Positions 19,455 through 62,151 of a stretch of DNA of 64,000 nucleotides are shown in pieces. This DNA is from Octopus vulgaris (Eukaryota). The notes under the pieces are model-generated. The model saw only the letters and a list, made by a program, of their open reading frames with translations, made no database searches and was not told the DNA's origin. The first letter of the stretch is position 1; every line of letters begins with the position of its first letter. The stretch spans positions 49,538,001-49,602,000 of the forward strand of contig OX597827.1 of assembly GCA_951406725.2 (NCBI GenBank), read 5' to 3'. The position numbers and the translations under genes were made by a program.

Positions 19455-19820
19455 TCTTTATATATAAAAGTGAAGTTGTGTGTCTGTCTCCTACGATTTA
19501 GATTCCAAACTACTCCCACATTTTGCGGTGCAGTTTAACCAAAATCGGGTATCTTATAGTCGTGATTCATATCGAGCCCTTCTGGGTATTAGCGCGCGTC
19601 TACAATGAGTCTACGATTTAAAAAAAATTTACCATCATTTTTTTCGCTATTATATAAGGGAAGTAACTCTCTAAAAATGTCTACCATGAGTCAACGATTT
19701 AAAAAAAATTTACCATCATTTTTTTTCCATTTTTTTGCTATTTTTTGGCTATAACTCTCTAAAAATGCTTATATAGTTATTTCCCTTACAAACCCGAGCA
19801 ACGCCGGGCAATACTGCTAG
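19455..19820 (+). mobile_element. Non-autonomous Helitron (short copy)
   Basis: A|TC 5' end, subterminal hairpin CCCG-agcaacgc-CGGG, CTAG|T 3' end, no TSD. Ends 65 bp from the FAM184-like donor at 19886. Confidence 0.85.
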
Positions 19821-44275: not shown

Positions 44276-44653
44276 CTATCCATGCTGTAACTCTCCCCTC
44301 TCTTTCTCTCATTCATTCTCTCTCTCTCCCTCTTTCCCTCTCTTCCTCTCTCTCTCTCCCTTCCGCTTTCCCTCTCTCGCCATTTACACTCCCTCATATC
44401 TCATTCCCTCTCTTTTGTTTCACTTTTACACGCTCGCTCTTATATCACAACTTTTACATCATCCTCCACCCCTTATTCCCTCCCCCACCATAGGCTCCCT
44501 TTGCTCTTTCTGTTCCATAACCTCACATCCACCCACCTCAACCATACTTGCCCTCCCCAGTACTGATGTGTTCCACTCTTCAAACACAGTTTGAGGAGCC
44601 GTACATATATTCATATATACATGCACACACATATACATTCATATATTTACATA

Positions 44654-45288
44654 CTAGCAGTATCGCCCGGCGTTGCTCGGGTTTGTAAGGGAAATAACTA
44701 TATAAGCATTTTTAGAGAGTTATAGCCAAAAAATAGCAAAAAATGCATTAAAAATGGAAAAAATATGATGGTAAATTTTTTGAAAAATCGTTGACTCATC
44801 GTAGACATTTTTAGAGAGTTACTTCCCTTATATAATAGCGAAAAAATGCATTAAAATGGAAAAAAACGATGGTAAATTTTTTTTTAAATCGTAGACTCAT
44901 GTAGACGCTTTCTTAGCCATTTCTGTTTTGGTGTCTTCAAGCCATGAAGTCGTTGTTCTAAAAGAACGCTGGTCTCCTTGACAACGCATTACAACGTTGA
45001 TTTCCTTACACTCCCTTCCCCACAGGTGCAGGTGTGAGCGTGGACGCCAACTCCGCCGCCATCGACACACGAAAAATTATGCATTAAAATGGAATAAAAA
45101 ATGATGTTAAATTATTTTTAAAATCGTAGACTCATCGTAGACGCGCGCTAATACTCAGACGGGCTCGATATGAATCACGACTATAAGCTACCCGAATTTG
45201 GTTAAACTGCACCGCAAAATGTGGGAGTAGTTAGAATCTAAATCGAAGGGGACAGACACTCACACAACTACAGTTTTATATATATAGA
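44654..45288 (-). mobile_element. Non-autonomous Helitron, same family as 19455-19820
   Basis: TC start at 45288 on the minus strand, hairpin, CTAG end at 44654. Confidence 0.85.
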
Positions 45289-45309
45289 TATACATAGCGC
45301 AGTAGTGGT

Positions 45310-45738
45310 GAGATGTGACAGCAAAGAAAAGCATACATTCACTCTCTGCATGCAATTAGACTCGGAAAGTTCGTGAGGACCCCATTGACCCAATTTGCTG
45401 ACTTTTCCGATAGCACACAGGTCTCAATGAATGGTTGAATGACCAAATCCAAGCTTCTCTGCTAGTTCCTCAACAGTTACGATGAGATTTTGTTCCACCA
45501 GGGTTTTCAGGATGTCCTTGTCGAGTTCTACAGATCTTTCAGGATGAGGCTCGTCTTCTAGGCTGTTCCAATATAGCTTTGAAAAAAATAGCTGTTAAAA
45601 TCGAAATGCACTCTTCAAAACTTGCACTATGAATAAGGACAAGATAAAATTACTACCTGCTTTTATAGCAAGTTAATATAAGTAGTTTATCCCATTCCCC
45701 TCTGACTTTTAGTTCAAGCTGTTGAAAAAACCGCATTA
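45310..45738 (-). mobile_element. mariner remnant, internally deleted
   Basis: 45310-45566 is the reverse complement of the transposase fragment at 46641-46897. 45567-45738 is probably mariner 5' non-coding sequence (inference). Confidence 0.7.
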
Positions 45739-46178
45739 TCTCTTATTATAAAAGGCAGATTTTATCTGCCTCCCTTTGGGAGTTATACAAATCTACAATA
45801 TAGGATTTCTTCAATTACAATTTACCTACCATTTTTAAGAGTACAATGCATCGCGTCATGCCAGGTCCAGTTTTTAAAATTTTAACTCCAATTAAGCAAA
45901 ATTTACAGAAAACTCACATTCTGGTGTGTGTGTCAAATGCTTTTCTTAGTCTGGTTTACACCACACGCAAACGCACACACACAGTGGGCAACGAATAAAA
46001 TGAAAGTAAATAGCGACAGTGATTTGAGGAAGACTAAAGTGAAAGTATTCTGTCTATGACGCTGATAGACACATGAGTAAAATGTATGGGAAGCTAAGAG
46101 CTAAGAGTGAGTGAAAATGTTCTTGGGAGAGAGTAATTAGTAATAAAGTAAACATACACTCATACATACATACATACA

Positions 46179-46210
<32 letters not shown>

Positions 46211-46449
46211 CACACACACACATACACACACACATACATACACACACATACATACATACACACATACATACATACATACATATACATACATACATACATA
46301 CATATACATACATACATACACACACACACATACACACACACAGTATTGAAGCTTGAGAACAATCAGATACATTTGCAACACATCTGTTGAAAATATTATT
46401 GTTCACACACATACATATACATATATACATACAGACAGACAGACAGATA

Positions 46450-46483
<34 letters not shown>

Positions 46484-46548
46484 ATCCAGCATGGCCACAA
46501 CCTCAAGGCTGAAACATATAAAAGAATAACAGAATATAAATGTGTGCA

Positions 46549-46900
46549 AAGTACAAGAAATATTAATGCAGTATATGGGGATTGGACAATAAGCGTAAGG
46601 CAGTGTCAATGGTGGTTCCAGAAATCCCGAGCCATAAACTACAGCCTAGAAGACGAGCCTCATCCTGAAAGATCTGTAGAACTCGACAAGGACATCCTGA
46701 AAACCCTGGTGGAACAAAATATCATCGTAACTGTTGAGGAACTAGCAGAGAAGCTTGGATTTGGTCATTCAACCATTCATTGACACCTGTGTGCTATCGG
46801 AAAAGTCAGCAAATTGGGTCAATGGGTTCCTCACGAACTTTCCGAGTCTAATTGCATGCAGAGACTGAATGTATGCTTTTCTTTGCTGTCATATCTCACC
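46549..46900 (+). mobile_element. mariner (Mos1/SETMAR-like) transposase N-terminal pseudogene fragment
   Basis: NINAVYG..ISVRQCQWWFQK..SLEDEPHPERS..TVEELAEKLGFGHSTIH*HL..IGKVSKLGQWVPHEL; the WVPHEL motif is at 46823-46840. Confidence 0.9.
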
Positions 46901-46918
46901 ACTACTGCGCTATGTATA

Positions 46919-47555
46919 TCTATATATATAAAACTGTAGTTGTGTGAGTGTCTGTCCCCTTCGATTTAGATTCCTAACTACTCCCACATTTTGCGGTACA
47001 GTTTAACCAAATTCGGGTAGCTTATAGTCGTGATTCATATCGAGCCTGTCTGAATATTAGCGCGCGTCTACGATGAGTCTACGATTTTAAAAATAATTTA
47101 ACATCATTTTTTATTCCATTTTAATGCATAATTTTTCGTGTGTCGATGGCGGCGGAGTTGGCGTCCACGCTCACACCTGCACCTGTGGGGAAGGGAGTGT
47201 AAGGAAATCAACGTCGTAATGCGTTGTCAAGGAGACCAGTGTTCTTTTAGAACAACGACTTTATGGCTTGAAGACACCAAAACAGAAATGGCTAAGAAAG
47301 CGTCTACATGAGTCTACGATTTAAAAAAAAATTTACCATCGTTTTTTTTCCATTTTAATGCATTTTTTCGCTATTATATAAGGGAAGTAACTCTCTAAAA
47401 ATGTCTACGATGAGTCAACGATTTTAAAAAAAATTTACCATCATATTTTTTCCATTTTTAATGCATTTTTTGCTATTTTTTGGCTATAACTCTCTAAAAA
47501 TGCTTATATAGTTATTTCCCTTACAAACCCGAGCAACGCCGGGCGATACTGCTAG
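46919..47555 (+). mobile_element. Non-autonomous Helitron, inverted twin of 44654-45288
   Basis: A|TCTATATATATAAA...CCCGAGCAACGCCGGGCGATACTGCTAG|T. Confidence 0.87.
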
Positions 47556-47906
47556 TTATATATATATACATACATACATACATACATACATATACACACA
47601 CACTCTCTCTCTCTCACACACATGCACACATTTATATTCTGTTATTCTTTTATATGTTTCAGCCTTGAGGTTGTGGCCATGCTGGATCATGTGTGTGTGT
47701 GTGTGTGTGTCTATCTGTCTGTCTGTCTGTATGTATATATGTATATGTATGTGTGTGAACAATAATATTTTCAACAGATGTGTTGCAAATGTATCTGATT
47801 GTTCTCAAGCTTCAATACTGTGTGTGTGTGTATGTGTGTGTGTGTGTGTGTATATATGTATGTATGTATGTGTGTGTGTATGTATGTATGTGTGTGTGTG
47901 TGTGTA

Positions 47907-47941
<35 letters not shown>

Positions 47942-48586
47942 ATGTATGTATGTATGAGTGTTCCTCAAATCACTATCTCTGGCTATTTACTCTCTTCCAA
48001 GAACATTTTCACTCACACTTATGTGTTAGCTTCCCATACATTTTACTCATGTATCTATCAGCGTGATAGAGAGAAACAAATATTACATCTAGTTTCACTT
48101 TATTCGTTGCCCACTGTGTGTGTGCGTTTGCGTGTGGTGTAAACCAGACTAAGAAAAGCATTTGACACACACACCAGAATGTGAGTTTTCTGTAAATTTT
48201 GCTTAATTGGAGTTTAAATTTTAAAAACTGGACCTGGCATGACGCGATGCATTGTACTCTTAAAACTGCTAGGTAAATTGTAATTGAAGAAATCCTATAT
48301 TGTAGATTTGTATAACTCCCAAAGGGAGGCAGATAAAATCTGCCTTTTATAATAAGAGATACACTCATTCTCCTGCATATACATACATGTATGTATATAT
48401 ACACAAACATTTGCATATATTCTCTCAATCTCACTCTAACTGAAACACACACACACACACAATATAATCATTAGAAAAATATTCTAAATATAAATCCATT
48501 GAACATTTTATAAATGAAATATTGTCCCCTGTAAATATATACAGAGAAACTCAGAGCTCTTGCAAGTAAGTGTATATATATTATAT

Positions 48587-49746
48587 AGGGGCAATAAACA
48601 GTGAAAATGTGCAGAGAACAACTTCTGCCATATCCCAGGGAGAAAAACTAGAAGTAGTTGATAGCTTCTGTTACCTAGGTGATCAAGTCAGTAACGGGGG
48701 AGGGTGCACTGAAAGTGTAGCTGCCAGAATAAGAATAGCCAGGGCAAAATTCAGAGAGCTCTCACCTCTGCTGGTGACAAAGGGCCTCTCGCTCAGAGTA
48801 AAAGGTAAACTGTATGATGCATGTGTACGAACAGCCATGCTACATGGCAGTGAAATATGGGCCGTGATTGCTGAGGACATGTGTAAGCTCGCAAGGAATG
48901 AAGCCAGTATGATCCAATGGATGTGTACTGTCAGTTTACATACTTGACAGAGTGTAAGTACCTTGAGAGAAAAGTTGAACCTAAGAAGAATCAGATGTAG
49001 TATGCAAGAAAGACGACTGCGCTGGTATGGTCATGTGGCAAGAATGGATGAAGATAGCTGTGTGAAAAAGTGCCACACCCTAGCGGTTGGGGGAACTTGT
49101 GGAAGAGGTAGACCCAGGAAGACTTGGGATGAAGTGGTGAAGCATAAGCTTCGAACATTAGGCCTCACTGAGGTAATGACTAGTAACCGAGACTTTTGGA
49201 AATATACTGCCAATTGAGACCATAACTTCATGACCTATGCCAGGAGTGTAACCAGCCTGCTTATGTGTACCTTTCCTTCATCGGACACTAAACTCTGCTT
49301 GCGAAGACCTGTTGAGGCAAGTAAAATCGAAATCAAATTCAATGACTGGCTTCCATGCTAGTGGAGTGCTAAGAGCGAGATCGTTGCCAGAGCGGCTAAC
49401 TGGCTTCCATGCCAGTGGCACGTAAAAAGCACCATTCGAGTGTGATCGTTCCCAGCGTCGCCTTACTGGTACTTGTACTGGTGGCATGTGAAAAAAACAT
49501 TCGAGCGAGGTCATTGCCAGTGCCACTGGACTGGCTCCTGTGCAGGTGACACGTAAAAAACACCATTTAAGCATGGCCGTTGCCAGTACAACCTGACTAA
49601 AAGCACCCACTATACTCTCGGAGTGGTTGGCGTTAGGAAGGGTATCCAGTTGTAGAAACTCTGCCAGATCAAGTTTGGAGCCTGGTGCAGCCATCTGGTT
49701 CACCAGTCCTCAGTCAAATCATCCAAGCCATGCTAGCATGGAAAGC
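48587..49746 (+). mobile_element. RTE-clade LINE 3' fragment followed by repeat family C
   Basis: EKLEVVDSFCYLGD..RIRIARAKFREL..LHGSEIW, RRLRWYGHVARM..GRGRPRKTW, then GCCAGTGGCACGTAAAA subrepeats. Confidence 0.88.
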
Positions 49747-61693: not shown

Positions 61694-62151
61694 GTGCATA
61701 ACTGGTACTTACCCAATTGCCCCCGAAAGGATGAAAGTCAACCTTGGTGGAATTTGAACTCAGAACGTAGCGGCAGACGAAATACTGCCAAGTATTTCGC
61801 ATGGCATGCTAACGATTCTGCCAGCTCACCACATTAATGATGGTGCATAACTGGTACTTATTTAATTGCCCCCAAAAGGATGAAAGGTAAAGTCAACCTC
61901 GGTGAAATTTGAACTCAGAACGTAGCGGCAGGCGGAATACTGCCAAGTATTTCGCCTGGCATGCTAACAATTCTGCCAGCTCACCACTTTAATGATGGTG
62001 CATAACTGGTACTTATTCAATTGCCCCCGAAAGGATGAAAGGCAAAGTCAACCTCGGTGGAATTTGAACTCAGAACGTAGCGACAGACGGAATACTGCCA
62101 AGTATTTCGCCTGGCATGCTAACGATTCTGCCAGCTCACCACCTTAATGAT
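61694..62151 (-). repeat. Three tandem units (149-155 bp) of the SINE family A head and core
   Basis: gtgcataactggtactta recurs at 61694, 61843 and 61998; each unit ends ccagctcaccacNttaatgat. Confidence 0.9.

Follow-up and report, generated by a model that had tools for sequence, protein, structure and literature searches.

We analysed a 64,000-nt window of the Octopus vulgaris genome (assembly GCA_951406725.2, contig OX597827.1, positions 49,538,001 to 49,602,000 of the forward strand; coordinates below are those of the window), in which one composite, non-autonomous Helitron appears to lie inverted inside a related copy at 44654-48361. The original prediction for this region had described two long inverted repeat pairs interleaved as A-B-A'-B' and had read them as two composite Helitrons, one inserted into the other. 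A repeat finder confirmed the interleaving, recovering arms at 44653-45566 against 46641-47556 (three pieces, 95-98%) and at 45737-46011 against 48087-48361 (98%). Single arms are 236-382 bp long with 95-98% complementarity, a match far beyond chance; an unmasked self-alignment of the window is dominated by microsatellites. The inner block, on the forward strand at 45739-47555 (1,817 bp), starts with TC, ends with a hairpin and CTAG, and sits between A45738 and T47556 with no target duplication. The outer block, which lies on the minus strand and spans 48359 to 44654, has ends of the identical kind and likewise sits at A^T, where ^ marks the insertion point; its halves, 48359-47556 and 45738-44654, together make 1,889 bp. 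Alignment of the two blocks bore out the predicted ends of both: the first 40 and last 45 bases are identical, and both read A^TCTCTT...hairpin-CTAG^T.

The inner element opens with a 5' module (45739-46011), ~273 bp long, that corresponds to the start of an autonomous RepHel Helitron family and holds a small hairpin at ~45753-45771; the outer copy of this module covers 48359-48078 (282 bp). It is followed by captured TACA/CA microsatellites with a short spacer (46150-46480), whose length differs among copies, and by the 3' part of a dispersed repeat (46482-46541) that has about nine matches of 73-81% in the window and is presumably like a short interspersed element (SINE). Next come a mariner transposase fragment covering the N-terminal helix-turn-helix region and interrupted by a stop (46549-46918, outer counterpart 45566-45289; Pfam HTH_48, Mos1-type, E 2.3e-6) and a 637-bp short Helitron with its own A^TC start, which supplies the 3' end (46919-47555, outer counterpart 45288-44654). 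The hairpin before the terminal CTAG (47528-47555 together) is a 16-nt imperfect stem at 47528-47543, 8 nt upstream of CTAG, with a predicted energy of -4.5 kcal/mol when folded as DNA. On the minus strand, the 5' half of the outer element (47556-48359) contains the autonomous-type 5' end, a further repeat, microsatellites and the SINE scrap, and its 3' half (44654-45738) contains a mariner leader, the mariner fragment, the short Helitron and hairpin-CTAG^T. The composite element has no coding capacity.

A comparison of inner and outer elements over 1,180 common non-microsatellite sites revealed 17 differences (98.6% identity in the common parts). Their middles could not be aligned (inner 46549-46640 against outer 47622-47556 plus 45738-45567), they diverge again at 46000-46160, and the inner element has 92 bp of mariner absent from the outer. 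The prediction that both carry the same cargo thus held for the common parts and failed for the middle, where each has a deletion of its own.

We searched the 2.80 Gb assembly for other copies. With the inner 5' part as query, the best 40 of 4,678 candidates were scored and 30 loci were retrieved, one of them the window. The predicted intact copies were found: 26 of the 29 other loci align to the inner block end to end at 96.2-98.6%, and the remaining three comprise one in two pieces, one internally deleted and one truncated. With a segment specific to the outer element as query, the best 40 of 2,671 candidates were scored, all at 100%. The site expected before insertion, CCGCATTA^TTATA with nothing inserted, was present in 30/30 retrieved loci of the outer type, joined there to the counterpart of the outer 3' half, and in locus L015 (L numbers denote our loci). 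Therefore, the inner element entered at A^T, and no base was duplicated or lost. The left junction (45738^45739, A^TC), which together with the right one (47555^47556, CTAG^T) restores this empty site, occurs once in the whole assembly, so the nest itself has not spread, and dispersal of a nested 3.7 kb unit was ruled out.

In 54 full-length copies, A precedes every one of the 49 non-tandem 5' ends, and T follows 43 of the 45 non-tandem 3' ends. Extraction used a 5' motif and a 3' motif tolerating one change; with these, a TC start was seen in 54/54 copies and a CTAG end in 50/54, the other four having one change. The dispersed copies have conserved ends and unrelated flanks. Mean pairwise distance inside subfamilies is ~1%, a value biased low because it comes from the best matches. 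With a calibration in which a distance of 0.09 equals 25 million years, as given in the cited part of PMC13282606, this would correspond to a subfamily age of the order of one million years. On these sequence features, the composite appears to be a young, dispersed, non-autonomous Helitron family.

The inner and outer elements differ in their deletions. An undeleted master form of ~2.16 kb exists (copies among L062-L071 and L073-L081). Relative to it, the inner type (subfamily I) has a 299 bp deletion that takes the second microsatellite and the mariner 5' leader, and the outer type (subfamily II) has a different, 158 bp deletion that removes the mariner N-terminal part. In the outer element, the leader (45567-45738, minus strand) is retained; in master copies it lies just upstream of the mariner ATG, and we infer that it is the mariner 5' untranslated region. 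The diagnostic deletion junctions gave 496 exact copies for subfamily I and 112 for subfamily II, with 0 for reversed-pattern controls. A third subfamily, with a small deletion in the mariner frame, was observed among the same loci as the master copies.

Alleles were compared at ~1,180 common non-microsatellite sites in 25 subfamily-I and 28 subfamily-II copies. The inner element showed a mean of 9.1 changes from subfamily I (nearest copy 2) and 18.9 from subfamily II (nearest 14), and the outer element a mean of 8.5 from subfamily II (nearest 3) and 18.0 from subfamily I (nearest 16). Both outer halves carry subfamily-II alleles. These results argue that the two elements represent different deletion subfamilies and are cousins rather than parent and child. 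As members of different subfamilies, each with 100 or more copies elsewhere, they do not represent a copy that landed in its donor, and their cargoes differ; of the predicted insertion into a sister copy, the nesting stood and the direct kinship did not. The structure represents a single event within a large family rather than a rare rearrangement of this locus. We are therefore highly confident that a subfamily-I copy was inserted inverted into a subfamily-II copy at A^T without duplication, most likely by ordinary rolling-circle transposition from a donor elsewhere.

As a mechanism, we propose that ~280 bp from the 5' end of an autonomous RepHel element, lacking its own terminator, became paired with the hairpin-CTAG of a short Helitron ~1.5 kb downstream. 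The DNA lying between the two ends would have been carried along, giving the master form in a single origin, and amplification of this ~2.16 kb master would have led to the deletion subfamilies. RepHel transposase acting in trans would have placed a subfamily-II copy here first, and a subfamily-I copy would later have landed inverted in the (TA)n tract of that element.

The 5' end of the composite could be traced to an autonomous family. A profile search yielded at least 150 RepHel matches, from scoring the best 150 of 1,172 candidates, and 40 were retrieved. The 5' module heads 16 of 18 retrieved loci of one RepHel family, and L133, upstream of the frame; seven autonomous loci match the composite module at 94.5-97.1% over 245-287 bp, including one at 95% over 245 bp, and the identity ends at about base 282, where the cargo starts. 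The protein of this module-bearing family has Helitron_like_N and PIF1 domains (Pfam), its 5' end is identical or nearly so to that of the composite, and its last 30 bases match at 26/30. An autonomous partner has been recognised by both 30-bp termini being common at 80% or more (PMC6544945, in the part cited), and this family has both termini in common with the composite at that level.

A second autonomous family (L117-L122, L125-L132, L135 and L136; for example L120:1521-7665) has a TC start and a CTAG end. Its frames reach 1,744 aa and its best-matching copy pairs have 98-99.8% protein identity, which suggests that it is very young and a possible current transposase source. Its last 36 bases are 89% like those of the composite; its 5' end merely resembles the composite's, and this family, which makes up most of L117-L136, was ruled out as the source of the 5' module. 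The module-bearing family is the simpler guess for the enzyme that moved the copies. Among the matches listed, RepHel clusters were seen at C29:27.64-27.83 Mb and C7:48-59 Mb (C, our contig numbers); several of those on C7 have an identical frame length of 1,120 aa, suggesting amplification of one broken copy. Other composite families were observed that combine the same 5' module with other cargo and a short-Helitron or autonomous-type 3' end (L022:1923-3416, L034, L083, L087, L088 and L090).

The 3' end has a different ancestor. A free-standing short Helitron at window 19455-19820 (forward strand, A^TC...CTAG^T) is 86-89% identical to the one inside the composite, and further free-standing relatives are present at L012 and L037, so that the two ends trace to two different pre-existing Helitrons. 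The original prediction had a short Helitron gaining an upstream TC end. Because the TC module is the RepHel 5' end, the likelier direction is the reverse, a 5' end running on to the 3' end of a downstream short Helitron; it is the 5' end that transposition needs. Read-through has been demonstrated for Helraiser (PMC4778049, cited in part), and in bats HelibatN539 uses the 5' end from one Helitron with the 3' end from another (PMC4224331, cited in part). Read-through would predict a cargo of the kind observed, which resembles ordinary host DNA rich in repeats and ends in a complete short Helitron with its own A^TC start preserved. This argues against a different origin, in which the composite is an internal-replacement derivative of an autonomous element, made by gap repair or filler DNA and followed by a 3'-end swap. 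The same module (~240-290 bp) on several unrelated cargos, with either kind of 3' end, suggests easy module exchange, and filler-DNA capture has been argued for insect Hel1 in the cited part of PMC6544945. We regard internal replacement as unlikely, although it deserves more weight than any of the alternatives for the nest considered below.

Several points weigh against our reading of the nest and its origin. Uniform insertion would give 0.04 events of subfamily I in subfamily II and ~4 nests in the whole family; therefore, some insertion bias is needed, and the reading requires clustering beyond chance whose cause we infer. The account of RepHel matches covers the best 150 of the 1,172 candidates. 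None of 19 retrieved module-bearing copies has an uninterrupted RepHel frame; their frames span 359-1,351 aa, and the longest ends inside the helicase. A source locus for the cargo was not found, and the one exact-pattern search for it, for mariner without the short Helitron, returned one mutated master copy; the capture step is therefore deduced from structure, and filler-DNA capture may have taken the place of read-through. Finally, among the small read sample and the listed contigs described next, we saw neither a read nor a contig that bridged the insertion junction.

This last point bears on misassembly, the false joining of reads from two dispersed copies, which the high copy number of both blocks would favour. 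In four contig sets, the segment 48320-48570 matched one 100-base piece, located in the unique flank, and no piece at the junction. For 45560-45920, three raw-read runs, sampled at about 3 in 100, had 0, 2 and 0 matching reads, and one contig set had 2,298 matching pieces, of which none of the 8 listed was bridging. In that contig set, loose ends at 45739 ran into the TA/TACA tract, representing the empty site, and loose ends of varied AT-rich sequence lay before 45737; neither proves the nest independently. Several observations speak against misassembly: the breakpoints coincide to the base with element ends at a canonical target, which an assembler would have no reason to respect; the two outer halves agree in belonging to subfamily II; the junction occurs once; and comparable nests are present elsewhere, at L008 and L084. 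Given the exact ends and concordant alleles, we judge misassembly to be very improbable.

The original prediction had named a replication template switch as the competing explanation: one element would have been locally duplicated and inverted, giving A-B-A'-B' without transposition, and interleaved inverted arms at 95-98% are the pattern that such events leave. The data refute it. The two blocks have the deletions and alleles of separate genome-wide subfamilies, not those of one local template; the junctions coincide exactly with the element ends, TC and CTAG, at an A^T target that is still intact; and the outer element has sequence lacking in the inner, and vice versa. The subfamily deletions and alleles therefore leave this explanation only a minute probability. 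Self-insertion, with the outer element as donor of a copy that moved locally into it, would fit the 98.6% identity and the physical nesting but is the least credible of all and for practical purposes ruled out by the same alleles. The inner element differs at 2 sites from the nearest subfamily-I copy outside the nest, against 17 from the outer, and has 92 bp of mariner that the outer lacks; in the cited part of PMC4778049, Helraiser is described as free of local hopping.

With transposition of a subfamily-I copy preferred, we examined where the family inserts. A (TA)5-like target was found for 30 of 60 non-tandem, CTAG-ended composite copies, compared with 11% of the window's A^T sites. Of the 30 composite targets without (TA)n (loci L002-L081), 19 have ATAAA starting at +7 to +10; shuffled flanks gave 2.3, and 0/2,000 shuffles reached 19. 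The ends of autonomous loci (L117-L156) behaved similarly, with (TA)5-like targets in 16/37 and ATAAA at +7 to +10 in 11 of the 21 others (shuffles 1.5; 0/2,000 reached the observed count). ATAAA occupies this position at 3.3% of the window's AT-rich A^T sites. Two target types are thus favoured, (TA)n and T-N5-8-ATAAA, the latter resembling the element's own 5' end, whose short start has ATAAA at +8. The target of the present nest is of the TA type and was provided by the cargo of the outer element.

Genome-wide counts distinguished two forms of the 5' end, a long one (TCTCTT) and one that is 2 bases shorter (TCTT). Of 3,577 ends counted, 2,855 long and 435 short follow A, and 287 (70 long and 217 short) directly follow the CTAG of another copy. 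The short start is therefore in tandem ~14 times as often as the long one (33% versus 2.4%; odds ratio 20). At 20 cluster loci (L082-L101), which were picked around known copies, we examined 22 tandem junctions: the joined elements were of different types at 19 and of the same type at two, and one pair is untyped. This suggests serial insertion at resident 5' ends rather than concatemers; circles recombining into residents through the common 5' module would likewise give mixed arrays. Internal nests were seen twice more: a subfamily-I copy lies ~400 bp into a sister in the same orientation at L008:153-1912 (one of the first 29 loci), and another is inverted within an element with the same 5' module at L084:1800-3616 (picked from a cluster). 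These two are too few for a rate. The copy at L004/L095 abuts another element's 5' end and was therefore not counted as nested.

The cited parts of PMC4778049 describe no more than a general bias toward AT-rich sequence 3' of Helraiser insertions. We found no target motif copying the 5' end in the literature examined, which did not extend to key Helitron papers and supplements, and the rule may be published. Tentatively, and a little short of even confidence, we suggest that the family targets a mimic of its own 5' end (A^T followed 7-8 bases in by ATAAA), so that resident copies, above all those with a short start, would be hot spots. Arrays would grow by serial insertion of unrelated copies and not as concatemers, self-targeting would stack ends and breed new composites, and the nest in the window would be a by-product of the same AT-biased targeting.

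Helentron or DINE-1-type elements have sub-terminal inverted repeats and a T^T target; here the target is A^T and the ends are TC and CTAG. By every feature testable here, the composite seems to work like, and to be, a canonical non-autonomous Helitron of the composite kind. Such elements, including bat HelibatN and wheat Xuan1, are described with 5'-TC, hairpin-CTRR-3' and an A^T target in the cited parts of PMC4778049 and PMC13286980. The octopus family resembles them in its TC start, 16-nt imperfect hairpin, CTAG end, insertion at A^T without duplication, lack of coding capacity and autonomous relative with matching ends, and differs in host, sequence and a cargo made up of a mariner fragment and an entire short Helitron. 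[quoted passage not shown]

Maize has nested and multi-terminus Helitrons with internal losses during amplification, as covered in part by PMC3288121, and a preference for insertion near other Helitrons has been credited to Yang and Bennetzen 2009 (PMC3288121 and PMC12477314, cited in part). The octopus family likewise has Helitrons within Helitrons, two 5' ends and internal losses during amplification, whereas its nest is inverted and, with a junction found once, has not itself spread. Head-to-tail arrays have usually been read as rolling-circle concatemers in the cited part of PMC5876387. CTAG^TC junctions are common in the octopus family too (287 exact matches), but the 19/22 mixed junctions are not expected from the concatemer of one circle.

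Elsewhere, the window contains 54 stop-to-stop open reading frames of 120 or more aa. Approximately three tandem units of ~150 bp each, belonging to a repeat dispersed in the window, lie at 61694-62151. Just past the outer element, the forward strand at 48560-49200 resembles by eye a decayed reverse-transcriptase tail, putatively that of a long interspersed element (LINE).

The nest itself is ordinary, nested and chimeric Helitrons being already known from maize and bats. It leaves inverted arms of 0.7-0.9 kb with ~98% identity 1-2 kb apart, which may be a substrate for inversion or deletion. The family offers a clean natural composite Helitron, both ends of which are traceable to parents, and the young RepHel families with long open frames alongside it are a resource toward an active animal Helitron. 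The self-targeting lead concerns the family, not the window locus; if it is true, tandem junctions alone would no longer be evidence of rolling-circle concatemers.

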